Positions 1 through 20,432 of a DNA stretch of 31,352 nucleotides are shown piece by piece; position 1 is the first letter of the stretch; every line of letters starts with the position of its first letter. The position numbers and the translations under genes are program-made. The stretch is from a virus (lineage: Duplodnaviria; Caudoviricetes), in the IMG/VR virus record IMGVR_UViG_3300017761_001785, positions 1 to 31,352 of that record; one strand, 5' to 3'. The notes below the pieces were generated by a model that was not told the DNA's origin, did no database searches, and was given only the letters and a program-made list of their open reading frames with translations.

Positions 1-349
1 GACCGTCGCGGAGTTGCGTGGGCAGGGCTTCGCTGCTGAATACTACGCTGCGTGATCCGGCGGCTGCGTGGGCGGTGACGGCTGCGGAGAGCTTGGCGCG
101 GGTGCTCGTGGCGACTTGCGATTCGATGCCTTCGGCGTCCACGCTTGTCTCGTAGTCGGAGTGTGTGCCGTCTGGCTCAAGGAACACTTGGCCGACCGTC
201 TCGCCTTCGACGAGTTGCGCCTGTAGCCACGCGAGAAGCGTTTGCGCGGTGAGGGCCAGCGGGCCGTCAAGAGGGATGGCGGTGGTTGTGGCGTATGCTC
301 CCGCGTTGCTGTAGCGGGTTAGCTGGTTGTTAGAGAGTAAGAGTTTCAT
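1..349 (-). CDS. Hypothetical protein downstream of the fibre gene, truncated by the window edge (not in ORF track)
   Basis: ATG at 349, 2 nt after the stop of the 641-aa gene; frame stays open to the window end (MKLLLSNNQLTRYSNAGAYATTTAIPLDG...). Confidence 0.75.
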   Translation of the reverse strand, partial: MKLLLSNNQLTRYSNAGAYATTTAIPLDGPLALTAQTLLAWLQAQLVEGETVGQVFLEPDGTHSDYETSVDAEGIESQVATSTRAKLSAAVTAHAAAGSRSVVFSSEALPTQLRDG

Positions 350-351
350 AA

Positions 352-2277
352 TCAGTCGTGGTATTGATAGCCCCACCAATGCACCCGACTCACGGCACCG
401 CTAGGGGAGGCATTTGTTCCGCTGTCGAAAGCTATGTCCACCGCGCCAACAGTGCCGCCGGCGGCATTGTTTGTCGGTCCTCCAGTAATAGTTGCGGCGG
501 CAATATTAGTGAACGCACCTCTATTATCTGACCTGTATAGCTCCACCGTTCCATTGGTGTAGTATCGCACTGCGTATAAAGCATACACGGCATAGGGAGT
601 ATTCTTCAATCCGCTGACCAATGGCCCGTTGGTTGCTGTTGTTCCATTGTGCGCTATCAATCGAGCCGAAAGATCAAGGTCTCCGCTAAACTCAATGCCG
701 ACTGCCCTGTTGGTCGGGTACTGCCCGATAGGGTCGCCTGTACTGTGACCGACAACAAAGCGCAGCACTGAGTTAGAGCGCGACCACATCGCCGCGAACA
801 CGAATGCGGTAAACCCTGAAGTAAACATATTGTTCCCTCCAGAAGATCCGGAATTGTTAATACCTTCCATTCGGCCAATTCTTACACCCACCAAATTTCC
901 AACATTCGTTGCCGAAGTTAAAGCCCAACGCGAACCCGTTGCATCAAAAGTTGCAGACCCGCCATTGGTTACCCGCGTCGGCATCCAGTCGGCCATCGTT
1001 TGGCGGTAGAATGTGCCATCCATATACTCACCAAAACTGGGGAGATATCTCGTATCCGACAATCCCCGAGTCATCAAACTCGACGCGCTGTCTGCCGTCT
1101 GCGAAGGCGCAGTGTTGTTGACGCCGTTAAGGGTCGCGTTGCCGGATGAGTTTATACCAAACATAACGCTTCCAGTGCCAGCTGTTCCGCCGTCCAAAAC
1201 TCTAAAACCATTTACCGCGCTTACCGTTAAACCAGCACTCCCCCCTTGAAGATAAGCATTGTATTTTTCTGCACCGCCTCCAGTTCCGCTTAATCGCAAG
1301 GATGCGGCTTGGTTTGTCCCCGAAGTGTCAAGCCATAGTGTAGAGTCATCACCATCGTCGACGGCATTTGCTGCAATCATTCGTAGCCTACGAAACTCCA
1401 CGTTGTTGGTTGTTTCCAGACCCCCGCGATTGGCAACGGAGATATTGGTCGGACCTAGAGCAACTAAAGTGGCCGACTCGTTGGGGGCCAGCGTGAGGTT
1501 GGTCGCGCCGTCAATCGTGATGCCGCCCACGTTGGAGATGGTCACTGCATTGGTCGCTTGGTTGACCAGATAGTAGAACGCACCGAGGACTCCGTTTGTG
1601 ACGCTGCTGATCGCGTTGTTGTTGGTCAGCCTAATGACGTTGGCATTCGATGGCAGGGTCAGGCGTCCGTTGGTCGCTGCGGCGGTTTGGGTTGCGTCAA
1701 GAGCCCATGTCGAGGGCGTGGTGGTGGTGAAGGAGCCGACTGTGAGGGAGCCTGCGATGGAGACGTTGGTGGCGAAGGTGGCCGCAGGCGTGACGGCAAA
1801 GCTGTTGGTTGCCCAAGCAAAAACGTTAAATCCGGCTTGTTCTAGTGTTCGCGTTTCAAATTCTAGTTGTCCGCCGAATGCCACTGAATAAATGCCCGAG
1901 CCGTTGATTTGAATCTCGTCGCCTGCGCCAAGAGTAAGGGCCGAGAATACTGGGCTGTTGGTTGTGCCAAGGCCGATGGCCGTGCGAAAATTCGTGACGT
2001 TAGTGTTGGTTAGCCACGTTGCGCCGAGACCGATAGCCGTGCGAAAATTCGTGACGCTGGTGTTGGTTAGCCACGTTGCGCCGAGGTCAAGGTTGGTGCG
2101 CGTGGCTGCACGAACCCCGCTATCAAACTGCAATGGGTTGGTAAATGTTAGGGCATTGGTCCCACCATAAATTACCTTGCCATTGGTTGTATCGTAGCCC
2201 AAAGATTTTATAGTTTGGGATTGGGAGGAACAGGCCAGCCCGATAAGAGCGATTGCCGCAAGGATAGTGTATTTCAT
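352..2277 (-). CDS. Tail-fibre-like protein with N-terminal signal peptide
   Basis: 641 aa, T/N/G/S rich; fibre-type TRTNLDLG and FRTAIGLG repeats; N-terminus MKYTILAAIALIGLACSSQS-QT; beta-rich C-terminal domain. Confidence 0.7.
   Translation of the reverse strand: MKYTILAAIALIGLACSSQSQTIKSLGYDTTNGKVIYGGTNALTFTNPLQFDSGVRAATRTNLDLGATWLTNTSVTNFRTAIGLGATWLTNTNVTNFRTAIGLGTTNSPVFSALTLGAGDEIQINGSGIYSVAFGGQLEFETRTLEQAGFNVFAWATNSFAVTPAATFATNVSIAGSLTVGSFTTTTPSTWALDATQTAAATNGRLTLPSNANVIRLTNNNAISSVTNGVLGAFYYLVNQATNAVTISNVGGITIDGATNLTLAPNESATLVALGPTNISVANRGGLETTNNVEFRRLRMIAANAVDDGDDSTLWLDTSGTNQAASLRLSGTGGGAEKYNAYLQGGSAGLTVSAVNGFRVLDGGTAGTGSVMFGINSSGNATLNGVNNTAPSQTADSASSLMTRGLSDTRYLPSFGEYMDGTFYRQTMADWMPTRVTNGGSATFDATGSRWALTSATNVGNLVGVRIGRMEGINNSGSSGGNNMFTSGFTAFVFAAMWSRSNSVLRFVVGHSTGDPIGQYPTNRAVGIEFSGDLDLSARLIAHNGTTATNGPLVSGLKNTPYAVYALYAVRYYTNGTVELYRSDNRGAFTNIAAATITGGPTNNAAGGTVGAVDIAFDSGTNASPSGAVSRVHWWGYQYHD
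1973..2085. repeat. 57-nt tandem repeat (2 copies) inside the fibre gene
   Basis: Near-identical units at 1973 and 2030 encoding LGATWLTNT(S/N)VTNFRTAIG. Confidence 0.9.
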
Positions 2278-2296
2278 TTAGCTTTTTCGGGATTCC

Positions 2297-2734
2297 TTAT
2301 TGTTTTTCGGTTGTTAGGATGCCACTATTGTCCACCTTAATCAAGAAGATATTGCTTCCAGATAGATAGGAAATCCATTGGCGGGTTGTAGATGATCCAC
2401 TTGGCGTTACTGTAAGTATACCACTGTCATCTACAGTCAAAGAAAATACACTAGAATTGGGAGATTTGACAAGCACAGAAGCAACCCCGCTCCCAGACCC
2501 AACAAGTTCTGTAGTAACAATACCATCGCTGTCTACTGTAAGCTTCCAAATCCCGCCTCCAGAAGCTACCAAATATGTGGGCGCATAGAAATTATTGATA
2601 ATAGCCGCTACCTGATACCTCCACGGCCAGTTAATATAGGTGGCAACTAATGCGGGATCTGCCTCGTCTCCCCTTGCTGCTGCGGCAATCCTTCCAATTG
2701 CCTCTTTTTCGCCCCACTTTAGTTCATAGCTCAT
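2297..2734 (-). CDS. Virion/fibre-associated protein with three beta repeats
   Basis: 145 aa; repeats WKLTVDSDGIVTTE, FSLTVDDSGILTVT, FLIKVDNSGILTTE; ATGA overlap with the upstream gene. Confidence 0.65.
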   Translation of the reverse strand: MSYELKWGEKEAIGRIAAAARGDEADPALVATYINWPWRYQVAAIINNFYAPTYLVASGGGIWKLTVDSDGIVTTELVGSGSGVASVLVKSPNSSVFSLTVDDSGILTVTPSGSSTTRQWISYLSGSNIFLIKVDNSGILTTEKQ

Positions 2735-3078
2735 GGCATGGCCTCCATTACGGGAATCAACCCAGCCAGTTCCTCTGGTGTCAACTCAGCTACCCCATCA
2801 ATTTCTCCAGCGTCAAATGCGGCAGCAAGGTCTGACTGCCATAGACAGGTATAGGCTAAACGGCCATCGGTGAGGGTTTGGCCGACAATGTTACCACGTT
2901 CCATGGACGCCGCATAAATGCTGGTCTTTTCAGCGTCATTCCAAAAAGCCCCAATGGTGCGTGTGTTGCCACTTCCATAGGACAACTCCTCACCGTATTG
3001 GGCATTGAGCGCAGGAAACAAGGTCGCCACGGCTTCGGGAGCTACGGCCATAGTGCGTTGGGTTAGTTCGTAGCTCAT
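2731..3078 (-). CDS. Hypothetical protein, 115 aa (start revised to MSYELTQR)
   Basis: ATG at 3078 overlaps the stop of the 406-aa gene (ATGA); the longer ORF-track version overlaps that gene by >100 nt. Confidence 0.75.
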   Translation of the reverse strand: MSYELTQRTMAVAPEAVATLFPALNAQYGEELSYGSGNTRTIGAFWNDAEKTSIYAASMERGNIVGQTLTDGRLAYTCLWQSDLAAAFDAGEIDGVAELTPEELAGLIPVMEAMP

Positions 3079-4295
3079 GGTAGTCCGAGGCCCGTGCCGA
3101 GGGTTGTTTTGTAGAGATCGTAAAGCTCTAAATTTTGAGATGCGTTTAGACTTGTCGAAATAACGTGTGCAAACGAAATTGTACCTAACCAAAAGAAAGC
3201 GTTAGTAGCGTAAGTTCCTATCAATAATGGATCAGAATTCATTACTACTGAACTCGTCATGGTTCCGACGGAAAGGCCCGAATTATATCCTGTAACGCTT
3301 GTCCCGCTTTTATTATAAACAGGAAATCTAAGCGAATTGATTGGCAATGAATATGTAATGCCAGTAATTTCATCTGCCATTTCTGATCCAGCCCCACCCT
3401 GCCCAATCCAGACAGGACGAGTTTGCAGCGCAATTTTGGTCCCTCCAGTTGAGGGTCTGCTAAGAGAAACTCCAAAGTTAAAATTTGAATAACCCGATTT
3501 TTCGGCAAATGCGACAGTGATGTAATCATCAGATCCGTCAAAAACCATCCCATCCGCCCCGCGTGTTGGGCCGTTGACCATTGTGCCATTGAACGTTCCC
3601 AGACCGCCCAGCGAAAACACGGTGTCGCCGCTTGCGGCATTCTGCGAAGACCTTAACGGCCAACAGACCATGGAATTCCAGAGACCAAGAGCCTTTACTC
3701 CAAGAACAAAGTCATTGATTGCCACAATGTCTGTGGCACCACTGGTTGCAACAAAGCTGCTTGCATTGGCGTCATAGGTCGAGGCTGATGCCGTGTTGCT
3801 ATAGCCAGTAAAGAACCCACCACTAGATCCCCTGATGCGATACTGGTAGTTGCTGGCAATATTTAGTCCGGTGTTGGTTGCCGTGGTGGCCCCGATTGCC
3901 GTGGTTCCGATAACCTGAAAGGCCGCTCCATCCACAGACCTTTCTACAGAATAGGCAACAGATGCCCCATTGGTAACCCAGTCTAGCTTTATTGAAGATG
4001 AGGTTAGCGGGGTCAGCGTTAAACCGCTGGGGGCAGCGGGGGCACTGCGATTGAATATGATTGCCCCGTAGATGTCGCTCCATGCATAGCTCTTGGGGAG
4101 TTCTATGTATTCTTGTTCTGTGCGGGGTCCTCCGAGTTCTACCGCGATCTTGGCATAGAGGTAACGTTCTGGAAGTGTGCAGAAGTCATCGATGGACCCC
4201 GAACCCGACTGCTCAACAAGCCACTTGGAAAGTAGTTGTCGCCTTGGCAAATCTGCCGAGGACGCAAAAACAGCATCTAATACTGGAAGGGCCAT
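3075..4295 (-). CDS. Virion decoration/adhesin-like protein with an FN3 domain and a LamG/concanavalin-like domain
   Basis: PAAPSGLTLT..SSIKLDW..YSVERS..TGL..YQYRIR is an FN3 pattern; C-terminal FDGSDDYI..PLLIG..GTIS..LNASQ is LamG-like; located downstream of the capsid gene. Confidence 0.75.
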   Translation of the reverse strand: MALPVLDAVFASSADLPRRQLLSKWLVEQSGSGSIDDFCTLPERYLYAKIAVELGGPRTEQEYIELPKSYAWSDIYGAIIFNRSAPAAPSGLTLTPLTSSSIKLDWVTNGASVAYSVERSVDGAAFQVIGTTAIGATTATNTGLNIASNYQYRIRGSSGGFFTGYSNTASASTYDANASSFVATSGATDIVAINDFVLGVKALGLWNSMVCWPLRSSQNAASGDTVFSLGGLGTFNGTMVNGPTRGADGMVFDGSDDYITVAFAEKSGYSNFNFGVSLSRPSTGGTKIALQTRPVWIGQGGAGSEMADEITGITYSLPINSLRFPVYNKSGTSVTGYNSGLSVGTMTSSVVMNSDPLLIGTYATNAFFWLGTISFAHVISTSLNASQNLELYDLYKTTLGTGLGLP

Positions 4296-4316
4296 AGTCT
4301 ATGGAACCCTTACAGG

Positions 4317-4556
4317 TTAGGCCATGCCCATAATTCGTTCACCCATGCCAGCCATAGGGCCAGCAGCTTCCATCTCCTCGTCTTCCATTTCTGCGACAGC
4401 TTCGTCTTCGGTGTCTTCCATCGGGATCTCGACACCAGCAAGCATGGTGGGGACAAGGGAGGTTCCCTCAACGCGAAAAGTAACCAACTCTTCAAAAGTT
4501 TGGCCGTCTTCAACGTCTTCGGGGAGGGTGTAATTTTCGGGGATTGAGAGCTTCAT
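4317..4556 (-). CDS. Small acidic hypothetical protein
   Basis: 79 aa, E/D/M rich; co-oriented with the structural operon and fills the gap. Confidence 0.7.
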   Translation of the reverse strand: MKLSIPENYTLPEDVEDGQTFEELVTFRVEGTSLVPTMLAGVEIPMEDTEDEAVAEMEDEEMEAAGPMAGMGERIMGMA

Positions 4557-4625
4557 AATGTAGTACTTTGTTTAAATTCTATAACACGCTTACAATACTA
4601 TGGTTTCGGGATTTTGTCACGAACT

Positions 4626-4660
4626 AAAAAAAGAGGGGAGAGACTTTCGCCCCTCCCCCC
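4626..4660 (-). terminator. Rho-independent terminator after the major capsid gene
   Basis: Minus strand GGGGGGAGGGGC-GAAA-GTCTCTCCCCTC-TTTTTTT: 12-bp stem (3 G-U), GNRA loop, U7 tail. Confidence 0.9.
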
Positions 4661-4684
4661 TTAGTGAATTATACTATCCTAATC

Positions 4685-5947
4685 TCAGCTAAGATAGCCG
4701 TAGCCAGAGCCAGAAGGACAAGCGACCAGATCGGCGGCAAGGTTGCAGCGCAGGTGCAGGATGTAGTAGCCCCAAGTAGGGACAATCTGCTTCACCGCAC
4801 AGGCCATCTTAGCCCTCCAGTAACCGCTGTTTTTGTCAGGGTTACAGTTCCGGTCATACTCGTTGATCCACTTGAAGTCGCCACGATAGTTCTGAGCATC
4901 ATAGATCAGTTTGCCGACCTTGACGTTCGTGCTAGGGACGAGCCACTCCATGGCCTTCGGATGGAAGATAACCGTCGAGCTATACTTCGCATTCTTGTAG
5001 GCGGGGTTGATGATCGCCTTGACGCCACCCGTACCGGGACCTGTAGAGGCCGTGGTGCTATAGGGGGCAACTTCGACGAATCCACCGGACCCGTTGTCAT
5101 TGAAGCGTTTCGGGAATGGACGGCTGTGGAACACGAATCCGCCGTATGCCTTTTTGGGCAACAGCGAGGAACCGTTGGCTCCCAGCAGATCATTCACGCG
5201 ATCACTCCAGCGGATATCCTGACGGACATCTTCCTGAAGTTTGATCAGGTTCTCAATGGTGGCGCGTTCTGCGAATACGTTGAACACAGGGGCACCGTCA
5301 TCGGTAACCGCATCGCCGTCATCTCCAGCATTCTCCTGATAGAGGTTGTCATGGATTTGACGAAGAACTCCCGGTGTCAAAACACTCGTAGGAGCGGGGG
5401 TTCCGGCGATAGTGGCGAGGCCCGTGGTACCATTGAAGGTAACGGTTCCGTTGGTATCAATTCCCGGTTCCACACTCAACTTGGTCGAATGCGCGAGATA
5501 ATCGTCATCGTAGCGTTTGATCCACTCGACGTTGACGTTGTCGGCCAAGATCTTGATGTAGTTGTTAACATCGTCAATCGGGAAGGTCGCGGTGCGAACA
5601 TCTTCCAAACAGATGAACTTGGACTCAACCGCCTGCTGACGGAGGCTGAAGGTCTTGGTGTCGAAGGCATAGCCAACGGTTTTGACAGGAGCCAAGCAGG
5701 CATTGTCTTGACCGGACTCACCAGTGACGCCGATATCTTCCCATCCGGTACCCGTAGCGATAGAACGCTGGGCGATGATGTTGGTGATCGTTTTGCCCAT
5801 GTTGTCGGGGAATGCCGACTGGGAAACAAAACGGAGATAAGGATCTTTGTAGAGACCCAAACGATAGGTGCCGAGGGCTACGCGCCCTGACTCCCGCACG
5901 AAGTTATCATTGATAGCTTCGCAAGTAGTAGCAGTCTGTGCTGACAT
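4685..5947 (-). CDS. Major capsid protein
   Basis: 420 aa; gene order portal-scaffold-this gene-terminator; features compatible with an HK97 fold (FPDNMGKTI E-loop-like segment, YGGFVF, VIFHPKA). Confidence 0.8.
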   Translation of the reverse strand: MSAQTATTCEAINDNFVRESGRVALGTYRLGLYKDPYLRFVSQSAFPDNMGKTITNIIAQRSIATGTGWEDIGVTGESGQDNACLAPVKTVGYAFDTKTFSLRQQAVESKFICLEDVRTATFPIDDVNNYIKILADNVNVEWIKRYDDDYLAHSTKLSVEPGIDTNGTVTFNGTTGLATIAGTPAPTSVLTPGVLRQIHDNLYQENAGDDGDAVTDDGAPVFNVFAERATIENLIKLQEDVRQDIRWSDRVNDLLGANGSSLLPKKAYGGFVFHSRPFPKRFNDNGSGGFVEVAPYSTTASTGPGTGGVKAIINPAYKNAKYSSTVIFHPKAMEWLVPSTNVKVGKLIYDAQNYRGDFKWINEYDRNCNPDKNSGYWRAKMACAVKQIVPTWGYYILHLRCNLAADLVACPSGSGYGYLS

Positions 5948-6121
5948 GATTGTTTATTTCTTTCTAATTAAGGTTGAGTTTATGTTTCGAGATTTTCCCG
6001 CAACAAAGTTTGTTTTTCCTCACGCCGCAGATGAGGAGTAGCAACGGCGATTCTAATTTAGAAAGCACTAAGCCAGCTAACAAGGCGTCTGCGACCAACC
6101 CAGACTAAAGTCTTGATTGGG

Positions 6122-6151
6122 AGACTACCCTAAAAACTAATTAATTGTCAA
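6122..6151 (-). promoter_or_regulatory. Sigma70-type promoter for the capsid gene
   Basis: TTGACA-N18-TAGTCT in the scaffold-capsid gap. Confidence 0.55.
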
Positions 6152-6160
6152 TAGCTAAAT

Positions 6161-7459
6161 TTAGCGTCTACCCATAATAGATGCGCCAAAGTTAGTTATA
6201 CTCTTATCGCTAACATCCTCGTCATCGCTTGCCTCTTCTGAGGTGCTTCCCAATGAGGGGGTGGCTCCGACGAATGACTTAACCTGTGATTCTAGTTCGG
6301 CAATCTTTTTGTCTCGGGATTCGACCTGACTCTTTAGCTGGGTACTATAGTGGTTGATCGCGCTCTCAAGGAATGGAACCACCGCTGCCCGAGACAGAAT
6401 GGCACTACGGTCTTCTACACTCAGTCGATCCAGATTGGTCTCTGCTGCAACCTTCTTGGCCCCACGAATCTGACCATTCCACTCATCGTTGCCGTCAATT
6501 TCCTGAAGGAAATTGTAGCGGTCTTCAAGGTTGGTCCAAGTTTTGGCCGTGAAAGCCTTTTGGAGTCGCAGATCATTCTCAATAAACTCCTGCTCCGATT
6601 GGGCCTTACGGGCATTTTCGGCCTCAGAAAGGGACTCCGCCTCACGCTGGAACCGCTCATGGTATTGGGCCAACTCATGGTACTTGTCGGCCATTTTGAC
6701 AATGGACATCTGCTCCATCCGCTTGAAGTCTCCGGTTAAGTCTTCTAGGGAATCGGTGCGCTTGCGGACATCCGGCTCGGTAATGGCCTGCCACAGCTTG
6801 GAAAAGTCAGAGTCATTGGCCTCTGCGATTGACTTGAGGTCTCCCTGCAAGCTCATCACGGGCTTCTTGATGGTCTCAATGTATTCGGGGGAACGCTCAA
6901 AGTTGGCGGTCTTTAGCTCGCGGTTAAGCTCTGCCATGCGGGTCTTGTAGTTCTCAAGCTCTTCTTGGAGGGTCTTGACGGTCTCTCCCTCGTACTTGCC
7001 AACCTGCTCCTTGGTCGCTTCTAGTTCGGCCTTGATTCGGTCCCGCTCTTCACGGGCCTTTTTCATTTCGCCCTTGATCTCTTTCCAAGACTGAATTCCT
7101 TTTTCGGAGTCATCGCCTTCGGGCCTGTCCGCTACTGGTTTATCCTGAAAGTGGGGGTTGATTGGAAGGTCGCTATCTTTGCTGGAATCCTCTGATTTAG
7201 ATTCGGCCTTCTCTGTCGAAGACTTCTTCGTGATCTCCTCTACTGCCTTGGAAGCTTCCTCCTTGGTTGCCTTGCTCTTCTTTTCGACCTTGGGCTCTGG
7301 GGACTTTTCTTTCGGGGTTTCGGGTGCTGCCTCTTTTACTTCAGAAGTTTCTGTGGGAGCAACCTCTGCCACTGGAACAGCTTCAGGGGCTGGGGTATTA
7401 AAGATTGTTCCAGCGAAGTCTGCGTCACCCGTAAGGGCACTGTTAAGGATTTCGGACAT
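6161..7459 (-). CDS. Capsid scaffolding protein (putative)
   Basis: 432 aa; disordered E/K/P N-terminus and long coiled coils; directly upstream of the capsid gene. Confidence 0.7.
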   Translation of the reverse strand: MSEILNSALTGDADFAGTIFNTPAPEAVPVAEVAPTETSEVKEAAPETPKEKSPEPKVEKKSKATKEEASKAVEEITKKSSTEKAESKSEDSSKDSDLPINPHFQDKPVADRPEGDDSEKGIQSWKEIKGEMKKAREERDRIKAELEATKEQVGKYEGETVKTLQEELENYKTRMAELNRELKTANFERSPEYIETIKKPVMSLQGDLKSIAEANDSDFSKLWQAITEPDVRKRTDSLEDLTGDFKRMEQMSIVKMADKYHELAQYHERFQREAESLSEAENARKAQSEQEFIENDLRLQKAFTAKTWTNLEDRYNFLQEIDGNDEWNGQIRGAKKVAAETNLDRLSVEDRSAILSRAAVVPFLESAINHYSTQLKSQVESRDKKIAELESQVKSFVGATPSLGSTSEEASDDEDVSDKSITNFGASIMGRR

Positions 7460-7476
7460 AGTATATAGTTATTTTA

Positions 7477-7761
7477 TTATTGTTCTTTGTTTATGTAAGA
7501 GAAAGCTTCTGGGATGTCCACCTTGGGTCTTGTTTCAAACTTACCCTTACCAAGAGTTTCTATAAGGTCAACCACTTCTTGGCTTCCCTCATAGAATCCC
7601 GCGCTCTTGATAAATACCGGAGACAAATCAAACCCCTGTGCCACAGGACCAGCACTACGCCGTGGGCGTACCTTTTTTGCGATAAACTTGAGGCCCTTTA
7701 CCATAGTCGGGTCTTCCCAAGTTTGTGCCCAAAAACGGGCATCTTGATCTGTCCAATTCAT
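7477..7761 (-). CDS. Small head-module protein between portal and scaffold
   Basis: 94 aa; this position is typical of podovirus head modules. Confidence 0.7.
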   Translation of the reverse strand: MNWTDQDARFWAQTWEDPTMVKGLKFIAKKVRPRRSAGPVAQGFDLSPVFIKSAGFYEGSQEVVDLIETLGKGKFETRPKVDIPEAFSYINKEQ

Positions 7762-7770
7762 TAGAAATTC

Positions 7771-7798
7771 AACCTATAAGGTTATAACAACTAGTCAA
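7771..7798 (-). promoter_or_regulatory. Possible sigma70-type promoter
   Basis: TTGACT-N16-TAGGTT, 9 nt before the ATG at 7761. Confidence 0.35.
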
Positions 7799-7807
7799 CA
7801 AGTAAAA

Positions 7808-10090
7808 TTACAGTCCCATCGCCATAGGGGGTCGCCCTGCTGGCTTTGCTGTTTTCTCCAGAATAGAACTGCGAGTCTTTAGATCGTTGAGGGCCATTTG
7901 CTGACGGATCGTCTCCATCTTCTGTTGATGGGTCTCTTGGTTCATCATGCGTTTCTCCTGCATTTCTGCCAACTTGAGTTGAGCCTTTTGCATTTCCATT
8001 TCCATTTTGGGATCGATCTGCGGCTGTCCACCTTGTTGCGGGGCACCCATCGCGGCTTCCTGCATTTGGCTTTGTTCGGCCATCGCCCTGTTGATCACCT
8101 GTTGCTCAAGCTCGTCAACATAAGCCGTAAGGTTCTGAAGCTGGCGGCGGAGTTCGCGGATCTCCTGCTGCCTAAAGCTGTTGTTGGAGAACATGACCAG
8201 ATGCTCAGTCACATGGTCTGAGGCGGGACGCAAGATTGCCATGGCCTGCTCGTCTGCCACTTGCTGCTGGCGATGGGCCTCAATGATTTCCGCAATCATT
8301 GGGATGTGGGCTTCGATATGCACCGCATGGTTCTGGCTATCGTGGACCAACTGCTGGATGCCCTGACGGAGGTTGCCGTTCTCAAGGTTGGCGATGTCGA
8401 AGTCAACGATCTTTCGGGGTTCGCCTTCGGGGACAAACATGTTGACCTTCTGGTAGCCGACTCCCGGTATGCCAGCAACCACTGCGCGAAGGACGTTCTC
8501 CTTGCCTTTCTCGTCCATCAAAGAATATAGCTCCATGAGTTGCTTGGAGGCCATCTCGGTCATTACCGGACTACCATCACCCATGGCCCTCATGGCGGTA
8601 ACCTTGAGGAATTTACGCATGCGCTCAATGCTTACCCCTCGACGCGCACAGCGGCGGCGGAACTCAAGGGCCAAGGCCCCGCCCTTATCTGCTGCCGTCA
8701 GGTTGGGGTTAACCGCCCTACGGTACTGTTCGGTGAGCAGCTTGTTGTAAGGGGTGTAGAAAAGTTCCAGTGCTGCGGCGTTTAGGGTGGATTCTTGACG
8801 GGCTTGCTGAACCACTTCCGTAGCAGACCTTGCTTGGTTGTCTGGGGTGGTTTGCCGTGAGCGGTAGCTTCCAGTGTTGTTCTGGAGGGTTTGGCTCATC
8901 AAATTGTAAACCGGAAGACCTTGGGTCGCGATAGACGGAGGCTGAAGTTGGATCGGGGTCAGGCCACTTTGGATGAAGGTGTAGGGTCCGACCTCAATGT
9001 ATTGGAAGTCTTGGATGGCTTCGGCGTCTCCCTGAAGCTGAATCAGGCCAGAGGTAACGGCAGCTTGGGCTGCTTGGCAAAGGATTCGATTACTGACCTG
9101 AATCGGGTTGTAGATCTTCTGCTTCAGGCCCCGAATCGTGTGGAAGGTTCCCTGTCCCACCCCGTAGGTAAAGATGACAAAGCACTGGTTGACGTTGTTG
9201 TACTTGCTATAACGCTCATAGAGAAAGTCTGAGCTATCCTTGGAGGCGATGAGTTGGGTGAACTTGCCGTCAAACTCGCGGTTGTAGCCGTAGATCAATT
9301 GAGCCCTGTGGTAGGCACTCTCTCCCTGATAGAGGTCGTTCTCCTTGATCTCGCGCTCAAAGTCTTCCCAGTGGTGGGTGTAGTTCTTCCATTGGTCGGA
9401 CTTGGTGGAAGCCTTCCAGATAGCCTGCTTTACGCTGTTGATGTTCCATCCTAGCTTCTTGGATATTTCGGGATTTCGGATGTAGTTGTAAAGCTCGCTA
9501 ACACTCATGTTGCGGGTGACCACAGCTACTTCAATGGCATTGTCGGATACCTTGGTATCACGGGCTACCTTAAAATCTTTGAGTCCGCAAGGCTCCCAGA
9601 ACACACTCCGCTCATCAGGCCACATGGCAATCCCAACCCCATCTCCCACAAATTCCCGAGAGAGAAGCTGCATGTTGTAGGGGAAGTCACTCCACTCCTT
9701 GAGCATCCAGTCAAACTCCTCAGAGATGACTTCGGAGTCCTCACTGTACTCCCCCTCGTAAGAATCCAAGATGACGTTGGCCACACGGGGAACGCCGTTC
9801 TGAAGTTCGATGTAGGGAGCAAGAGCGGCCTCCATAATGGCACTGGCTTCTCCAAAGTTGCTATTGACCACATGGGTCAGTCCCTTGTTTTTTAGTTCTT
9901 CGGAATCGTAGGGGGCCTCCCCGTTGACTAGAGCTTGCGCCTTAGACCGCAACCAAGAAGCTTCCTCGTCTTGCTCAATGTACTTGTCGCTTATGGCAAC
10001 CAAGTTGTCGGAAGATTTAATACGCTTTTTGGGCGCACCCCCTTTTTCTGGTAGGTTCTCTAGTTCTGCGTTGCCTTCGTTTGAGTACAT
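7808..10090 (-). CDS. Portal protein
   Basis: 760 aa; GDGVGI motif, RSATEV motif typical of P22/T7-type portals, long Q/M/E-rich helical C-terminus; upstream of scaffold and capsid. Confidence 0.85.
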   Translation of the reverse strand: MYSNEGNAELENLPEKGGAPKKRIKSSDNLVAISDKYIEQDEEASWLRSKAQALVNGEAPYDSEELKNKGLTHVVNSNFGEASAIMEAALAPYIELQNGVPRVANVILDSYEGEYSEDSEVISEEFDWMLKEWSDFPYNMQLLSREFVGDGVGIAMWPDERSVFWEPCGLKDFKVARDTKVSDNAIEVAVVTRNMSVSELYNYIRNPEISKKLGWNINSVKQAIWKASTKSDQWKNYTHHWEDFEREIKENDLYQGESAYHRAQLIYGYNREFDGKFTQLIASKDSSDFLYERYSKYNNVNQCFVIFTYGVGQGTFHTIRGLKQKIYNPIQVSNRILCQAAQAAVTSGLIQLQGDAEAIQDFQYIEVGPYTFIQSGLTPIQLQPPSIATQGLPVYNLMSQTLQNNTGSYRSRQTTPDNQARSATEVVQQARQESTLNAAALELFYTPYNKLLTEQYRRAVNPNLTAADKGGALALEFRRRCARRGVSIERMRKFLKVTAMRAMGDGSPVMTEMASKQLMELYSLMDEKGKENVLRAVVAGIPGVGYQKVNMFVPEGEPRKIVDFDIANLENGNLRQGIQQLVHDSQNHAVHIEAHIPMIAEIIEAHRQQQVADEQAMAILRPASDHVTEHLVMFSNNSFRQQEIRELRRQLQNLTAYVDELEQQVINRAMAEQSQMQEAAMGAPQQGGQPQIDPKMEMEMQKAQLKLAEMQEKRMMNQETHQQKMETIRQQMALNDLKTRSSILEKTAKPAGRPPMAMGL

Positions 10091-10178
10091 ATTTCGGGAT
10101 TATTGTGGCAGGGTTACGATTACGTCGATTCTTTTAACCGGATTCTCGTAAACATCTATGATTTCTGTAGCAGCCATA

Positions 10179-10550
10179 TTATCGAACAATCTCTTGATAA
10201 ATCTTTGCATTGCCTTTAGCAAATCCAATCACATCTGACCCTACATAAAGTTCAATCTCATAGACCCCGTCTCCAGCAGTAAGGTTGGATGTTTGTGTCG
10301 GGGTTGCATCGATATCAATGGTTCCGGCAACTCCCCCCAGCGTGATCCCTCCGTTTTCTGTGGTAAGGTTAAGTAGGTAGGCCGAATCTTCGGCGCACTC
10401 CCTGACAACCATTCTTGCGGTATATCCGGTAAGGTTTACGGCAACTGGCTTGCGTCCAGCACTGCACAAGCTCAAATAACGAAACTTGGCCTCCCAAGTT
10501 TTGCCTTGGACAATTTCAATGTCCCTCTGCAATTTCCAGATGTTGGTCAT
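10179..10550 (-). CDS. Ig-like fibre/baseplate adaptor domain protein (BppU-N-like), copy 2
   Basis: VNLTGYTARMVVR..LTTENGGITLG..GTI..GVYEIEL; paralog of 12498-12899. Confidence 0.7.
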   Translation of the reverse strand: MTNIWKLQRDIEIVQGKTWEAKFRYLSLCSAGRKPVAVNLTGYTARMVVRECAEDSAYLLNLTTENGGITLGGVAGTIDIDATPTQTSNLTAGDGVYEIELYVGSDVIGFAKGNAKIYQEIVR

Positions 10551-12184
10551 TTAAACAGGGGAATGCGGAAATTGTTGGTCACTCCGTTTGTTACTACATT
10601 AACCTCCATCCAGTGGATAGCCGTATTGAAGTTAACTGTGTTTACGTTTGCAGAATTTGTCGGGGCTGAGTTAGTATTAAAGATGGCTGCTTGAAAATTG
10701 ATATTGTTTGTATTAGTCAATGCAGCAAGTGGGATGCCAAGGTTTGTTCTGCTTGCCGCTGCATTGGTCGCTGCATTGGTTCCAGAGAAGTAAATGGGCT
10801 CAATAAACGATTGGTTGTTATTGAACTGCCACACATTGTTGTAGTAGACAAACTCCACCGCCTCTTCAAATTGATTCAGTGTGACAAGATTAGTTGCCGC
10901 TCCAGCCGTCCTTACCGCCGTAACGCTGGATGTCGGACCTTGGTGGACAACTAGTGCGATATCTCCATTGAATGAGTTGTTGGTGGGGAGGCCGATAGTG
11001 TTAGTAACTCCCGTGGTGGAGATGGCCAAGCTATGGATGTGGAGGTTTCGGGCTGCGGTGATGTTGGTCGTTTGATTGGTTGTAGGTTGGGACTCAACGA
11101 ACCTCGTCACAATCGGAGCCACTTGCCAGAAGTTGGTCGGGCTTACCACCTCTCCGTTGGTGTTGTATAGAACAGGGTTTGTTCCGCTACCATAGAGGGA
11201 TGTGTTGAATCCCGCTGGGTTGGTGTTGGTCAACGCAGACCAGCCGAGGCTGAGATTGGTGCGGGTGGTGGCAGCATTGGTGGTGTTGTTAAAAGTCAGA
11301 GGTTCGTAAAAAGTAATTCTGTCTGAATTAAAAAGAGCAACCTCAACGGTTGTTCCACTCATTGTCCCAATATTGATACCAAAGGTTGTTGTGCCTTCGG
11401 CGTCTGATCCATAAAGACCAATGAGTCCATTGCTGGAAGGATACATGCTTTGCCACTGGATGCCGTTAAGAGTGGTCGAAGAAAAGCCAGTACTCTGCTT
11501 GGCGGAAACGGTATCAAAAGAAACCTTGTTGGTCGTGCCTAGGCCGATAGCTGTGCGGAAATCCGTGGTGTTGGTATTGGTCAATGCAGACAAGCCGAGA
11601 CCGAGGTTTGTGCGGGTGATAGCGGCGTTGGTAGTGGTGTTGAATGAAATAGCCTTAGAAAACTCCATTGTATCTACGTTGAATCTGACAAAGGTCCCCC
11701 ACAGAACATCTCCATCCTCCTCTAATTTGAGATCGGGACCAATTTCAACATTCTCAAAATTTACAAAGCTGGCATCAAGGTTGCCAAATGCCACACTATT
11801 TGTGGTGCCGAGTCCAAGATTGGTTCTGGCTCCCCCAGCCGTAGTGGCCCCGCTTCCACCATTACTGATGGCGATTGTTCCGGTGACATTAGAGGCCAAA
11901 CCAACAGTTCCTGTAATATTGGCTGCTGTGAGGTTTGTTAGTGTGCTACCATTGCTGGACGCAAGATTAGTCAACACAGAAGACGAAGGCTGAAATGCTG
12001 TTGCGGGATTTGTCGCTGCGGTACCTAGACCAAGACCAGAACGGGCATTGGTAACATCCGCGCTCCAGAAGTTTGTCGGACTCTGCACCACCCCACTTGT
12101 ATTGACAATGACGCTGCGGGTTTGAGCCAGCCCCGAAACAGCAAGGGCAAGAAAGACAATGGTTGTTAGAATAGATTTCATCAT
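10547..12184 (-). CDS. Tail-fibre-like protein with Sec signal peptide (start revised to 12184 or 12181)
   Basis: (M)MKSILTTIVFLALAVSGLA-QT; repeated ARTNLGLG-type motifs; GGSGATTAGGARTNLG fibre motif; ATG at 12184 overlaps the upstream TAA (TAATG). Confidence 0.75.
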   Translation of the reverse strand: MMKSILTTIVFLALAVSGLAQTRSVIVNTSGVVQSPTNFWSADVTNARSGLGLGTAATNPATAFQPSSSVLTNLASSNGSTLTNLTAANITGTVGLASNVTGTIAISNGGSGATTAGGARTNLGLGTTNSVAFGNLDASFVNFENVEIGPDLKLEEDGDVLWGTFVRFNVDTMEFSKAISFNTTTNAAITRTNLGLGLSALTNTNTTDFRTAIGLGTTNKVSFDTVSAKQSTGFSSTTLNGIQWQSMYPSSNGLIGLYGSDAEGTTTFGINIGTMSGTTVEVALFNSDRITFYEPLTFNNTTNAATTRTNLSLGWSALTNTNPAGFNTSLYGSGTNPVLYNTNGEVVSPTNFWQVAPIVTRFVESQPTTNQTTNITAARNLHIHSLAISTTGVTNTIGLPTNNSFNGDIALVVHQGPTSSVTAVRTAGAATNLVTLNQFEEAVEFVYYNNVWQFNNNQSFIEPIYFSGTNAATNAAASRTNLGIPLAALTNTNNINFQAAIFNTNSAPTNSANVNTVNFNTAIHWMEVNVVTNGVTNNFRIPLFK

Positions 12185-12501
12185 TACATTCGTTGTTTCC
12201 AAACCTTAGCATTAGTAGATATGTTGAAATCGTTTGGACGGATTACAAACGGCAGGTTTTCTGCGTCTGTTCCACTTACCAGTTGATAAGTTGCTGGAGT
12301 GGCGAGGGTTGGCAGGAATACGCATATCCCGACTGGATAAACATCAGTAACTGTATCCAAGGCTGCCAGCGAGTTAGAGGCCCCAGTTGTAGAAGTGATG
12401 GTTGTATCCACCCTGAATACATTGGAATTCGGGGTTGTTGCTGGAGTTGTGCCTACTCCGATAACTGTGGAAGCTGGGGTTGGAATGCAAATTCTGCTCA
12501 T
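12184..12501 (-). CDS. Small fibre/tailspike connector-like protein
   Basis: 105 aa, T-rich; ends VIRPNDF..KVWKQ, reminiscent of tailspike N-proximal domains; translationally coupled on both sides. Confidence 0.55.
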   Translation of the reverse strand: MSRICIPTPASTVIGVGTTPATTPNSNVFRVDTTITSTTGASNSLAALDTVTDVYPVGICVFLPTLATPATYQLVSGTDAENLPFVIRPNDFNISTNAKVWKQRM

Positions 12502-12899
12502 TTTGTAACCTCTGGTACGATAATAACATTGCCCTGAAGTATGCGGCTAACCGTATACCCAGATGTCATTTCAAGATCATAAACCGCTTTTACCTCTTCG
12601 CAAACACTTAATTCTGCCGAGTTGGCCGCGCTGATGAAAAGATTGATGGCACCTGTGGTCATGTTTCCACTCGTTCCAAGCGAGATACGAGAGTTGTCTG
12701 TGGACAATTCTATAATGACGGCCTTAGACTTGGCAGAAGAACGGACTTGAAGTTTTGCGCTGTAACCCGTAAGGTTAACAGGAGCAGGAGGATTACCAAC
12801 TTCCCAGATTAGTGTCTGGCTAAAGGTGGCTCCTTGGAATAGGCAGATATCGGCCTCTGCAATGGGGATAACGGGAGATGACGCCATTTTGCCCGACAT
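12498..12899 (-). CDS. Ig-like fibre/baseplate adaptor domain protein (BppU-N-like), copy 1
   Basis: FQGATF..PVNLTGYSAKLQVR..ELST..GAINL..AVYDLEM..RILQG. Confidence 0.7.
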   Translation of the reverse strand: MSGKMASSPVIPIAEADICLFQGATFSQTLIWEVGNPPAPVNLTGYSAKLQVRSSAKSKAVIIELSTDNSRISLGTSGNMTTGAINLFISAANSAELSVCEEVKAVYDLEMTSGYTVSRILQGNVIIVPEVTK

Positions 12900-12902
12900 T
12901 CT

Positions 12903-14744
12903 CTACCAATTACCTCTTAAGGTCAAGCGTTGTTTAAGTTCTTTGAAGCTCTCTTTGTTTTTACGTTTCTTTTCTTCTATTGCCTCCGATCCCGCCATGG
13001 CACCGAAAACTTTGCGAGCCACAAAGAGTCCAACAGAGAAAGAGTCAAACAAGTCAGGGGACTTGCCTATACGCTTCTTCATGTCTGTCTTGCTCTCGAT
13101 TATAATCTTCCGAGTCCTTCTCACATACTTTCGCTGAGTCATTTCCCATGCCAAATCCGGTGTTACTCCTTTGAGTTGCTCGCATTCTAAGAAGTAGCGG
13201 GAGACAAAGCACAACTCGCTAGACATGTTGTGGAACAATTCCTTGCCAACCTGCGGCTTTCCGGTGGCCTCGTTTCTTAATGCGTACTGGGCACTGACCG
13301 GAAGGTCTGAGGCTGCTCCTGCAAAACTCACTGCATGCCAACCCCTTAGAAGCTCCCTCTCTCCGATTGACCAGAAGATACCGCCTGCCGAAGCGTCCAC
13401 CCCCATCCATTGGTTGGGTATTCCCAGTTTGATGGATAGATCGTGGATTTGCTGGATCATCTCATACTGGAAGTCCTCTTGAGACCCCGCCCTCCGGTTG
13501 AGGACATACTGCTTCTCTAGGGCTATGGCCCACTTGCCCGAGATTAGCTTGCCCCATTTCATGTGGGTGAAGACAAAGCGGTCTCCTCCTTCTGTATAGC
13601 TAGGATCGATTCCGGCAATATCTTTCGGGGTTCCATCCCAGATTGGTTTATCCAAAGCCCCGTGACGGGCTAAGAGGATGTCCGAAACAACTGTACAATC
13701 ATCGGCGTCTGCTGGTGGCCAAAAGCCCCGAAACTTACGCCAGTACTGGGGATTGAGTTCCCCGAGTTCCTTTCTGGCTACAGCAACGTCATTGGGTTTG
13801 GGAAGGAATGGATAGCGAAGACCCTTACCCTTATCAAACGACTGTTGGTTGGGGTTGTCTTTTTCGGAGTCAAAGCGCAAGGCTAGTCCCTCAATACCTG
13901 CTACTTTGATTTTCCAGTTCGGGGTTTCCTCGTCCACGCTCATCCACCCCTTGATGGGTTCGCAGAATTTCCCGTGGGGATCAAAGATGGAGGATGGGTT
14001 GCCAGCACCAACAACGTGAAGCTCTTGCGCTCCCTTAAATCCCCAAAGAGCCTCGTTGATTACGGAAGACGAGCAGTCTTGTAACTCATCTATAATCAAC
14101 ACAATACGACGATTCTTCTTACCCTGAAGGCGTTTCTGAGCATCATCCTTGTACTCATCGCCAGCCGCAAGCAGCATGATTGAGGAAGCGTCACTAACGC
14201 CAATATTGGGATCGATGGCCTTACCCTCCTCATCTGAAAGCTTGATGATATCCATGGATTCAATGAGCCTTCCAGCCGCCACTCCAACAGCATGAGCCTC
14301 TCGGTACATCTTTACCAGTGCCGCCCAAATTCGTTGCTTTGCGTCGATCTTGCTGGTCGAAACCACAATAACCATCGTGTTGAGCGGGTCGACAAACCAG
14401 TTCACCAGTGCTAATGCGGCCATATCGTAAGACTTACCAGAGTCTGTGCCGCCAGCTAGACCAGTAACGCTTCGGACAAATTTGTTGCCTGTCTGAGTGT
14501 CCTCTTCGATGTTTACCTTGCAGAACGCCTGTGCCCGTAACTCAGCCCACTTGTGCCATGCATAAGTTGGCCAAATAGTAGACACTATATTCCGGTAGTG
14601 GGTCGCCTTGCCAAGCCCACCTTCTTCTTGGGTTAGTCCCAAAAGAAAGGCGTCCATTTCGATACGGAGAGGTGTAACAACAGCCCCGTTGCGAGGGGTC
14701 CATAGCCTTCCATATTTTTCTATCGCGCCGTCAGGTATTGCCAT
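12903..14744 (-). CDS. terL: Terminase large subunit
   Basis: Walker A GGTDSGKS, Walker B LIIDE, coupling motif GAGNP, nuclease motifs GIDPS..GGD and SPDLFDS. Confidence 0.93.
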   Translation of the reverse strand: MAIPDGAIEKYGRLWTPRNGAVVTPLRIEMDAFLLGLTQEEGGLGKATHYRNIVSTIWPTYAWHKWAELRAQAFCKVNIEEDTQTGNKFVRSVTGLAGGTDSGKSYDMAALALVNWFVDPLNTMVIVVSTSKIDAKQRIWAALVKMYREAHAVGVAAGRLIESMDIIKLSDEEGKAIDPNIGVSDASSIMLLAAGDEYKDDAQKRLQGKKNRRIVLIIDELQDCSSSVINEALWGFKGAQELHVVGAGNPSSIFDPHGKFCEPIKGWMSVDEETPNWKIKVAGIEGLALRFDSEKDNPNQQSFDKGKGLRYPFLPKPNDVAVARKELGELNPQYWRKFRGFWPPADADDCTVVSDILLARHGALDKPIWDGTPKDIAGIDPSYTEGGDRFVFTHMKWGKLISGKWAIALEKQYVLNRRAGSQEDFQYEMIQQIHDLSIKLGIPNQWMGVDASAGGIFWSIGERELLRGWHAVSFAGAASDLPVSAQYALRNEATGKPQVGKELFHNMSSELCFVSRYFLECEQLKGVTPDLAWEMTQRKYVRRTRKIIIESKTDMKKRIGKSPDLFDSFSVGLFVARKVFGAMAGSEAIEEKKRKNKESFKELKQRLTLRGNW

Positions 14745-14773: not shown

Positions 14774-15529
14774 ATGGCAGCGCAACGAGATTGGTCAACT
14801 CCAGAAAATAGAATTAAAAAACAAAACGCCTTTAGGCTCTATGCCGCTGGACGAAAGATGGCGGATGTGATGGCAGCATTGGGTGTAACCTCTCCTCCTG
14901 TGGTTAAGAGATTTATCCACAGCGAGAAGTGGGACAAGCACAAGGAACTTTGGAACGCCGCCCCAAATGAAGAGCTTCACTATCCTTGGGAGGTTGAACA
15001 TGTCACCACCCTATCACTTCCCCCTGAGAAAATGGAAACGATGGAGAAAAATAAACGTCTTCAGTGCATCAAGGCATTTGCCATGTACTGCTCTGGGAGA
15101 TCAGTTAGCGATGTTGCTTTGGAGGTCGGGGTTAGCCACTCAACTATTGACCTTTGGAAGGATGCCCAGCGTTGGGACGCCTGTCGGGCAAGGTTGGTCA
15201 ACGAGTCGGCCCCAGCCCCTTGGGAAGATAGCGGGGTTCCCACACTAATCTCGGATATCACGGCATCGCTTGAGGCCATGAAGAAGTCGATCAAGTTCCT
15301 TACTGGCAAGGTGCTAATCAAGGCCGCAGACGCAGCCCAAGATCTTGACGGCATGGAGGCTCTCGGCATGATGAGGAACATCAAGCAATTGGCTGAAGCT
15401 GCCTCAATTAACTTCTCAGATGGAAGCAACCAACAAAACGCCATTCAGATCAACATTGCCTCCAAGTTGGAATCCATTAAAATTCCGAACAACACAACCT
15501 TTGAAGCGGAACTAGTAGTCAATGAGTGA
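14774..15529 (+). CDS. Tandem-HTH protein, probable terminase small subunit
   Basis: Two repeats of AF.(L/M)Y..G..(M/V).DV...(L/V)GV....W resembling the P2 gpP/Terminase_5-type HTH, followed by a helical region; adjacent to terL. Confidence 0.6.
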   Translation: MAAQRDWSTPENRIKKQNAFRLYAAGRKMADVMAALGVTSPPVVKRFIHSEKWDKHKELWNAAPNEELHYPWEVEHVTTLSLPPEKMETMEKNKRLQCIKAFAMYCSGRSVSDVALEVGVSHSTIDLWKDAQRWDACRARLVNESAPAPWEDSGVPTLISDITASLEAMKKSIKFLTGKVLIKAADAAQDLDGMEALGMMRNIKQLAEAASINFSDGSNQQNAIQINIASKLESIKIPNNTTFEAELVVNE

Positions 15530-19544: not shown

Positions 19545-20161
19545 AGCTCTTCGTCGCTTTCACTAACCCAGCGGCTTCCTGTATCCTCGCAACTAAACTC
19601 CTGACTGAATACCTTCCAGTCGGGCTTTGCCGGAAAGGACTTGGCGATAAACGATCCGCCGTCCAGCCAAAGGACTCGGTTGTTGGGTTGGATAAAGAAC
19701 TGCCCATCTCCCTTAAATACATGGCCGCACTTGTGACCAGCAGCCAGTTCCCCGTAGCCCGATTGATACTGTGGTCCAAGGCACCAGTCCAAGGTAAACA
19801 TGTATTGGGCTTTGTGCAGGGTGCGGTCTTTAAGCATGATATTCGCCGCACGATTCTTGCAGTAGTCGATAATTCCCGAAGAGCAGTAGTAGCTCATGGT
19901 ATCCCAAAGCTGTATCCAGTCCAAGGGATAGCTCGTTCCTCCGGTTTCATCTGTATGCAGGTAATGGATTGGAACTCTTGCGTGTTGGCTGCCGTATTCG
20001 GTCATCACGCTGAATAGTCCACAGCGTTGCGGGATGGAGGTGTAGTTGAATACCTCAACCACAATCCTTTCGTTGTCTACGTTGGCTTCAGTATCGTACA
20101 AAAATCCCGTATCCAAAAAGGCAAAGAAGACGGGGATGTTGACGTTGAGATAGTTACTCAT
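19514..20161 (-). CDS. Conserved phage protein of unknown function (start MSNYLNVNIP)
   Basis: 215 aa; YLN.NIP, PIH, QLWD..SY, YMFT.DW, HKC.H and QPNNR motifs recalled from a widespread aquatic-phage family. Confidence 0.75.
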   Translation of the reverse strand: MSNYLNVNIPVFFAFLDTGFLYDTEANVDNERIVVEVFNYTSIPQRCGLFSVMTEYGSQHARVPIHYLHTDETGGTSYPLDWIQLWDTMSYYCSSGIIDYCKNRAANIMLKDRTLHKAQYMFTLDWCLGPQYQSGYGELAAGHKCGHVFKGDGQFFIQPNNRVLWLDGGSFIAKSFPAKPDWKVFSQEFSCEDTGSRWVSESDEELWFYEFKERG

Positions 20162-20432
20162 TGGCAATCTTTCGTAGTAGTTCGGTCTGCTTGCGAAGCT
20201 CATAGGTCTGCCTACGCATCTCTCCTTCTTGTCTCATGGCGTCGATAGAGGCACTCATCTCCGCAGAGATTCGATCATAGTTCGCCATGCGCTCACGATG
20301 GTCTTGGTCTCGGTCAATTGTTTGGCCTTGGAATGTCTGGATGCGTCCACTGTCCAAGTCCACAATGGTTCCGTTGAACTGCTGGCCATAGCTTACGCTG
20401 GCCCCGATTACTGCTAGTAGTATGTATTTCAT
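20154..20432 (-). CDS. Small secreted protein (start revised to MKYILL)
   Basis: 92 aa; MKYILLAVIGASVSYG-QQ signal-peptide-like segment, then a helical region. Confidence 0.65.
   Translation of the reverse strand: MKYILLAVIGASVSYGQQFNGTIVDLDSGRIQTFQGQTIDRDQDHRERMANYDRISAEMSASIDAMRQEGEMRRQTYELRKQTELLRKIANE

Follow-up and report, generated by a model that had tools for sequence, protein, structure and literature searches.

Tailed phages are taught to finish their assembly in the cytoplasm, and to our knowledge all known components of multi-part fibres are made there without signal peptides; the T5 p132/LtfC collar and the joining of P22 heads and tailspikes are cases of such multi-part attachment. 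Here we analyse a stretch of 31,352 nucleotides (the window), which is the entire virus record IMGVR_UViG_3300017761_001785 of a tailed phage (Caudoviricetes) with a completeness of ~43%. It encodes two fibre-like proteins, open reading frames (ORFs) A and B, that both begin with a predicted signal peptide. A sequence-only reading of the window had proposed that these fibres are exported and either dock onto virions at lysis or are displayed at the cell surface as decoys or adhesins.

Virion proteins that use the host Sec system and signal peptidase are familiar from filamentous phages, whose pVIII and pIII are membrane-anchored and assemble during extrusion; the present case differs in being a terminase-bearing phage with an amidase. 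The multi-part fibre and adaptor-spike systems of T4 gp9/gp10 and CBA120 TSP4, as the available text of PMC8825819 describes them, are alike in their adaptor-like genes (phrog_3304), XD1-type domain and separate proximal and distal parts, but ORF B has an XD1-like and not an XD2/XD3 docking domain. The Bdellovibrio MAT fibres (PMC10769870, available text) are likewise trimers of the phage-fibre type that carry signal peptides and vary at their adhesive tips. They are chromosomal cell-surface proteins with a conserved ~130-residue domain behind the signal peptide, often S74, whereas A and B are phage genes among virion genes, with no S74 match and short, varied mature starts, and on that description, no direct comparison of profiles having been made, they are set apart. 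A Gln directly behind a small-x-small site, found here in all leader-bearing homologues, recalls the Q-rule of Bacteroidota Sec/signal peptidase I (SPase I) substrates (available text of PMC5837995 and PMC10653852). That rule was described for Bacteroidota, and Verrucomicrobiota has 0 occurrences in the available text of PMC5837995, while the host evidence here concerns Verrucomicrobiota. Five Porphyromonas prophage genes encode proteins with Gln-type signal peptides, of unknown function and not described as fibres in the available text of PMC10367356. A literature search, with subscription journals largely outside its reach, found no paper on signal-peptide fibres of tailed virions. The nearest published cases are the MAT fibres (PMC10769870) and the Porphyromonas proteins (PMC10367356), as far as the available texts of both go, and the export route would be new for fibres if the virion role holds. 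The two genes have the following parts.

352..2277, minus strand: ORF A, 641 residues, with leader, helical repeats, fibre-like shaft and lectin-like tip; an accessory gene
2218..2277, minus strand: leader of A, 20 residues, ending in SQS before QT
1960..2112, minus strand: repeat block of A, about residues 56-106, modelled as short helices
355..987, minus strand: C-terminal domain of A (residues 431-641), predicted concanavalin/lectin-like jelly roll, predicted local distance difference test (pLDDT) mostly 85-93
10547..12184, minus strand: ORF B, 545 residues, with leader, helical repeats, gp9/gp10 XD1-like domain and C-terminal hairpin; fixed slot; phrog_2282 tail fibre match, E 5.5e-4
12125..12184, minus strand: leader of B, 20 residues, ending in GLA before QT
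10820..11107, minus strand: domain of B (residues 360-455), predicted XD1-type fold as in T4 gp9/gp10, CBA120 TSP4, CpaA and StcE, pLDDT 90-94

Both repeat-sharing frames are present as the sequence-only reading had stated, and their repeat blocks align with 26 identities in 45 positions (E 8e-9). The RTNLGLG/FRTAIGLG and LTNTN motifs it listed recur in both proteins, except that the A unit at residue 60 reads RTNLDLG. FRTAIGLG stands at 78 and 97 and LTNT[NS] at 70 and 89 in A; B has RTNL/RSGL-type units at 48, 120, 191 and 308, FRTAIGLG at 209 and LTNTN at 201, 318 and 489. The start codon of B, at 12184, and the stop codon of the gene before it overlap (TAATG). Each protein opens, as described earlier, with a basic-hydrophobic leader running into QT, and the two leaders show no significant mutual alignment (E 0.72).

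Leaders were called by a rule of our own (basic n-region, uncharged hydrophobic h-region, 15-30 residues) and tested by conservation in 240 homologues, comprising the best 120 of 496 matches for A and the best 120 of 648 for B. A basic-hydrophobic leader is present in 223 of the 240, with Gln at the junction in all 223; the other 17 all align to positions inside leader-bearing relatives, i.e. they start mid-protein. Among 140 distinct leaders, with the site set by Gln alone, Gly, Ala or Ser occupies position -1 in 138 and position -3 in 134, the length is 17-23 residues in 137, and 12 different four-residue mature starts follow. Conservation is clearly lower in the leader of A than in the next 25 residues (0.36 vs 0.64) and slightly lower in that of B (0.69 vs 0.76). 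None of the 140 leaders has a lipobox Cys at +1 or a twin-arginine motif. A further profile search added 123 proteins among the best 150 of 2,322 matches, with leader and Gln in 95; of the remainder, 3 have a leader behind an upstream start and 25, unaligned, look fragment-like by eye. A second start codon giving a cytoplasmic fibre was considered and rejected, as none is conserved near the Gln in 53 genes (the best reaches 12 of 53 and lies in the mature part). By our rule A and B have the n- and h-regions and the small residues at -3/-1 of predicted Sec/SPase I substrates, and on the same grounds they depart from textbook fibres, which are made in the cytoplasm without a signal peptide. Judged from these sequences, export of A and B is very likely. 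Neither protein matches a sorting family in Pfam or NCBIfam, and the model of B terminates in a hairpin and that of A in a jelly roll, neither with a barrel-like end; the C-termini of the homologues vary.

The two proteins also bear a mark in their composition. Thr-Asn (TN) pairs number 28 in A against 7.7 expected (z 8.2) and 33 in B against 10.9 (z 7.8); the counts in five leaderless fibres of complete relatives are 8 vs 8.7, 1 vs 3.7, 4 vs 3.0, 4 vs 5.4 and 3 vs 1.8. Across 120 viral loci, TN is 3.49-fold over expectation in 51 leader-bearing fibres (range 2.3-5.0) vs 1.18-fold in 48 leaderless ones, and masking of the four repeat words leaves 3.1 vs 1.14. Seven leaderless fibres reach 2.3-fold, four of which are fusions of the kind described below, while three rest on 3-5 counts. 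The non-repetitive tip of A alone has 8 pairs against 1.9 expected. Asp-Ser/Thr pairs, the glycosylation motif of Bacteroidota, are depleted in these fibres.

TN excess is also seen in bacterial genomes. Among the LamG-bearing proteins of 30 Verrucomicrobiota genomes the TN z exceeds 4 in 2, and large surface proteins with 1.8-6.7-fold TN occur in genomes G065, G056, G035 and G038, in regions chosen around first matches. In G356 the ratio is 1.46 in 42 leader proteins and 1.00 in 280 soluble leaderless ones, few proteins carrying the excess; G360 has no TN excess. In some Verrucomicrobiota TN thus seems to distinguish exported proteins, and the excess likely reflects modification by the host outside the cytoplasm, for example glycosylation, with TN as its putative site. 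The Verrucomicrobiota surface proteins with TN excess (L228, L235-L238, L243, L244, L248, L249, L253, L062) possibly display an undescribed modification motif; our literature search found no publication on TN in that role. A search with Wzy_C_2 gave no match, controls included, and is uninformative.

In four kinds of relatives a leaderless fibre piece (stub) and an exported half are joined in one frame. Two scans and an alignment yielded 19 distinct fusion junctions among 70 loci. Their layout is a leaderless fibre, a hairpin, a segment of 19-20 residues that opens with Arg and has a hydrophobic core, and, in all 19, Ala followed by Gln. Compared in pairs, the junctions are 0.76 identical in the hairpin, 0.43 in the segment and 0.66 in the next 12 residues. 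Before this internal signal the 19 fusions contain 22 TN pairs against 41.8 expected (0.5-fold), after it 341 against 106.8 (3.2-fold; 2.4-4.0-fold in each fusion). The fusions and their TN switch therefore tie a leaderless fibre and an exported half into one unit, and within a single chain the TN mark follows the predicted membrane side. The distal half in L007 is 51% identical to residues 52-298 of A over 282 columns. The portal is 81-85% identical to that of the window in seven fusion loci, whereas four have no match to six window proteins; one N-terminal part matches the tail family phrog_1197 and three others matched nothing. Taken with leader conservation and the -3/-1 pattern, the internal signals lend good support to the export proposed by the sequence-only reading, as far as sequence can tell.

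Gene order connects the two proteins to the virion genes. The minus strand runs terL, adaptor 1, a 105-residue gene, ORF B, adaptor 2, a 25-residue ORF, likely portal and likely scaffold, followed by likely capsid, a 79-residue gene, a 406-residue FN3/LamG protein, a 114-residue gene, a 145-residue gene and ORF A. The features outside A and B are as follows.

12903..14744, minus strand: terminase large subunit (terL), phrog_2 match
12498..12899, minus strand: adaptor-like protein 1; phrog_1084 E 8e-19, phrog_3304 E 9e-7, PF23926 LtfC weak at E 0.09
12184..12501, minus strand: 105-residue leaderless protein, likely linker between adaptor 1 and B; before 27 of 31 B-type genes
10179..10550, minus strand: adaptor-like protein 2; phrog_1084 E 4e-16, phrog_3304 (L-shaped fibre assembly) E 1.5e-4
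10100..10177, minus strand: 25-residue ORF, likely remnant, in the slot of a leaderless fibre of 400-1,200 residues in relatives
7808..10090, minus strand: likely portal, 760 residues, by position and size only
4685..5947, minus strand: likely major capsid protein, by position and size only
3075..4295, minus strand: 406-residue leaderless FN3 and LamG-like protein, likely head decoration; family always behind the capsid gene
2297..2734, minus strand: 145-residue leaderless stub, likely partner of A; N-terminal 48 residues as in the post-capsid LamG/FN3 family, then three hairpin units
2-355, minus strand: 119-residue leaderless gene, no Pfam or PHROG match
20154..20432, minus strand: 92-residue non-fibre protein with leader then Gln, not TN-rich
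19275-19544, minus strand: likely lipoprotein, among non-structural genes

The placement of B between terL and portal, as given by the sequence-only reading, stands for terL by its phrog_2 match, while the portal is assigned by position and size only; the portal and capsid candidates of the window and its relatives have no match in PHROGs, Pfam, NCBIfam or PDB sequences. All 21 terL-to-portal loci (on 17 contigs) carry adaptor, 105-residue gene and leader fibre in this order, counting L006, whose leader is present with Thr at -1. The 105-residue family, for which PDB and Atlas structure searches gave no useful match, directly precedes 27 of the 31 B-type genes. Most loci add leaderless fibres behind adaptor 2; the window has only the 25-residue ORF there, with more than half of the phage genome unseen, and a long leaderless fibre is likewise absent from the terL-portal block in loci of two other lineages (L002/L084, L105 and L115), L105 having leaderless fibres after the capsid gene. 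The 25-residue ORF at 10100-10177 resembles a bare adaptor-binding strand. A-type genes follow leaderless hairpin-ended proteins, often 71-residue stubs with overlapping stop and start, which are hardly more than a fibre N-terminus and a hairpin placed before leader genes. A hairpin end is found in 14 of 20 leaderless proteins that precede a leader gene vs 0 of 102 others.

Three side observations concern this layout. On the unrelated contig L348 the same hairpin end is followed by a 967-residue protein with leader and Gln and little TN excess, which hints at the same layout in another host group. A family of 129-139 residues with leader and Gln, not TN-rich, stands directly behind A-type or fused fibres in L116, L011, L013, L016 and L029. 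The 119-residue gene (window 2-355; L044:7982-8341) lies directly behind A in L044 and L045 and is a possible fibre partner or chaperone.

Structure prediction gives partial views of both proteins, which were modelled as monomers with poorly modelled shafts. The model of A (60 sequences, mean pLDDT 64) has a confident lectin-like jelly roll at the C-terminus, whose closest matches are phage J-1 Dit CBM2 and SO2946 (E ~1e-5, a likeness confined to the domain); A has no PHROG match. In that of B (36 sequences, mean pLDDT 57) the repeats form short helices and confidence is high in one domain only, residues 360-455, which has Foldseek matches to CpaA, CBA120 TSP4, T4 gp10/gp9, StcE and a capsid spike (E 3e-4 to 0.3); the best ESM Atlas value for B, 0.88, is a lead only. 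Both proteins resemble fibres in sequence or fold, the likeness being weak or confined to a domain, and the predicted folds agree with domains known from virion appendages. Docking of the B globular domain to the 105-residue protein, in the manner of XD2/XD3, was considered and dropped, as the available text of PMC8825819 shows the matches to be XD1-type. Standing behind adaptor 1 and the 105-residue protein, B is likely a tail-side fibre. A leader fibre occupies the post-capsid slot of A in 3 of 76 loci. A is thus likely optional, and likely a head fibre, because the first 48 residues of its stub are common to the LamG family behind the capsid gene; its tip is predicted to bind sugar. A complex prediction of three stub hairpins with three copies of A residues 21-115 scored 0.00 and is evidence for neither side. 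A search for longer forms of the stub gave two matches, both LamG-type, with only the N-terminus in common.

The evidence points to a host in Verrucomicrobiota; a Bacteroidota host is also possible, despite the depletion of Asp-Ser/Thr pairs in these fibres. A Verrucomicrobiaceae contig from a metagenome-assembled genome carries a fibre-like gene with hairpin end, then five leader-bearing genes, the first resembling the start of B; these five consecutive genes (L058:1067-3365) sit at a prophage end and are not TN-rich. Two Verrucomicrobiota genomes contain distant relatives with the same gene order: one lies within a contig of 489 kb (portal 22% identical), the other on a contig of 29 kb. A capsid scan of genome contigs for close prophages gave no match. 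The B profile hit 3 of 401 and the A profile 2 of 401, as did the portal in the phylum sample; with the portal of a relative, the yield was 2 of 401 in the class of G006 and 0 of 201 in that of G065. All these matches are distant. Gln at +1 follows 4 of 42 leaders in G356, 4 of 16 in G360 and 0 of 10 in G065, against 100% in the phage. Type-I glutaminyl cyclase (PF05096) was found in 0 of 5 genomes; the other cyclase type was not searched.

We consider it somewhat probable that A and B are the outer halves of two-piece virion fibres, in which a cytoplasmic stub is joined at lysis by a Sec-exported outer part. Directed by their leaders, A and B would reach the periplasm by way of Sec; cleaved by signal peptidase ahead of the Gln, the outer halves would fold there and perhaps become modified. 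Once the holin opens the inner membrane, they would dock on the stubs of particles made in the cytoplasm. Modification of TN outside the cytoplasm may be the reason for the detour. Finished spikes of P22 and T4 are known to join finished heads in vitro. A broader scenario, which we regard as possible but doubtful, extends this to a large clade of tailed phages assembling across the inner membrane. Heads with short stubs would wait at its cytoplasmic face, some tethered by fibre polyproteins with an internal signal, while outer fibres would fold in the periplasm, gain an undescribed host TN modification and snap on at lysis; the TN switch would then also point to an undescribed protein-modification system of some Verrucomicrobiota.

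Several observations speak against two-piece virion fibres. The homologues are related to one another, and their counts overstate the number of independent events. N-x-S/T is not enriched (A 14 vs 12.2, B 15 vs 16.4) and STT3 exceeded the cut-off in 0 of 10 incomplete Verrucomicrobiota genomes; N-glycosylation of the STT3 type was rejected on these grounds, and because of them no enzyme is known for TN. The hairpin pattern behind the 14 of 20 vs 0 of 102 contrast was defined after the positives had been viewed, and outside the clade the hairpin is an ordinary fibre end: among 29 distinct unfused ends examined, the next gene is a leader gene in 5 and leaderless in 21, with none found in 3. Most relatives also encode ordinary leaderless fibres. 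Cleavage in the fused forms would leave a hydrophobic helix on the stub hairpin, which could block docking. The confident domain of B is of the XD1 type, also present in secreted CpaA and StcE; XD1 is a spacer fold unable to bind a trimeric partner coaxially (PMC8825819, available text), and the domain therefore offers no docking site. Neither of the two distant (pro)phage relatives showed a leader-bearing fibre, and no sampled genome combined TN excess with a high share of Gln at +1.

Some of the same evidence suits fibres that are exported without becoming virion parts, staying in the periplasm, being set free at lysis to act as soluble decoys or to block receptors, or reaching the surface through host secretion. 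The clear export signals and host-like TN composition are as expected, the occurrence of the B domain in CpaA and StcE fits secreted proteins, the leaderless fibres of relatives could serve the virion, and the same phage encodes small non-fibre exported proteins (20154-20432 and 19275-19544); Gln-type signal-peptide genes of a prophage have been proposed to alter the host envelope (PMC10367356, available text). We nevertheless judge this unlikely in view of the fixed slot among adaptor genes (21 of 21 loci), the in-frame fusion to leaderless fibres at 19 junctions, the 71-residue stubs before leader genes, and the want of a lipobox, sorting-family match or barrel-like end. As to the alternatives left by the sequence-only reading, docking at lysis gains support because of that slot, the pairing with leaderless stubs and the fusions, and surface display loses ground because A and B have no lipobox, sorting-family match or barrel-like end.

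Two further accounts concern the leader itself. It might be a membrane tether that is cut late or never, so that fibres span the inner membrane and hold the assembling virions against it; on release, particles would drag the fibre through the membrane or carry off a patch of lipid. A membrane-spanning state is indeed unavoidable for the 19 fused forms if their internal signal works, and the frequency of fusion indicates that tethering is at least tolerated; yet all 19 fusions and nearly all free leaders retain the small-x-Ala site before Gln although the remaining sequence has diverged, which argues for selection for cleavage, and free leaders would offer a stub only 2-4 residues on the cytoplasmic side. 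A tether is accordingly quite improbable in our estimation. That the leaders are no export signals at all, and are instead a hydrophobic anchor buried in the particle, a stretch that a phage protease trims off or a segment bypassed through a second start, we take to be very improbable. Leaders were called by our own rule and not by a trained predictor, and predicted signal peptides of capsid proteins are likely cut by prohead proteases (PMC10367356, available text); here, however, the character of the segment is kept while its sequence is not, no start codon is conserved near the Gln in the 53 genes, and composition switches exactly at the internal signal.

Contig L044 derives from the same phage (A and capsid 100% identical) and continues beyond A into lysis genes that include an amidase (PF01510, E 1e-17), in favour of fibres that are joined at lysis; a holin match (PF09682) was obtained for the counterpart in the relative G003, whose likely core tail genes have no leader by our rule. 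Portal-like genes 88, 87 and 33% identical to that of the window occur in three complete relatives (70-73 kb, with terminal repeats), and all three encode a gene of 2,700-3,100 residues, which suggests a short-tailed phage. The proteins at 20154-20432 and 19275-19544 are conserved in G002/G003 and are possible superinfection-exclusion genes. On the plus strand at 14774-16112 a terminase-small-like helix-turn-helix gene diverges from terL and is followed by a Cys-rich 196-residue gene; distant prophages have a similar Cys-rich gene between terL and portal. Candidate genes for sugar-modifying enzymes lie in G003 (L046:1389-2848; L047:4262-7282) and in the window at 17388-18359, one with a cupin/epimerase-like match and the others unmatched. 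The distant complete relative G001 carries an integrase (L054:10993-12135), and part of the group is likely temperate.

The export claim is testable in E. coli without the host, and the fused forms provide a natural experiment with a sharp internal boundary. Being countable, TN excess offers a way to recognise exported phage proteins, and it may lead to a putative modification system in Verrucomicrobiota. If A and B are virion parts, one step of assembly would take place beyond the inner membrane, coupled to lysis, and the periplasmic chemistry of the host would shape the surface of the particle.

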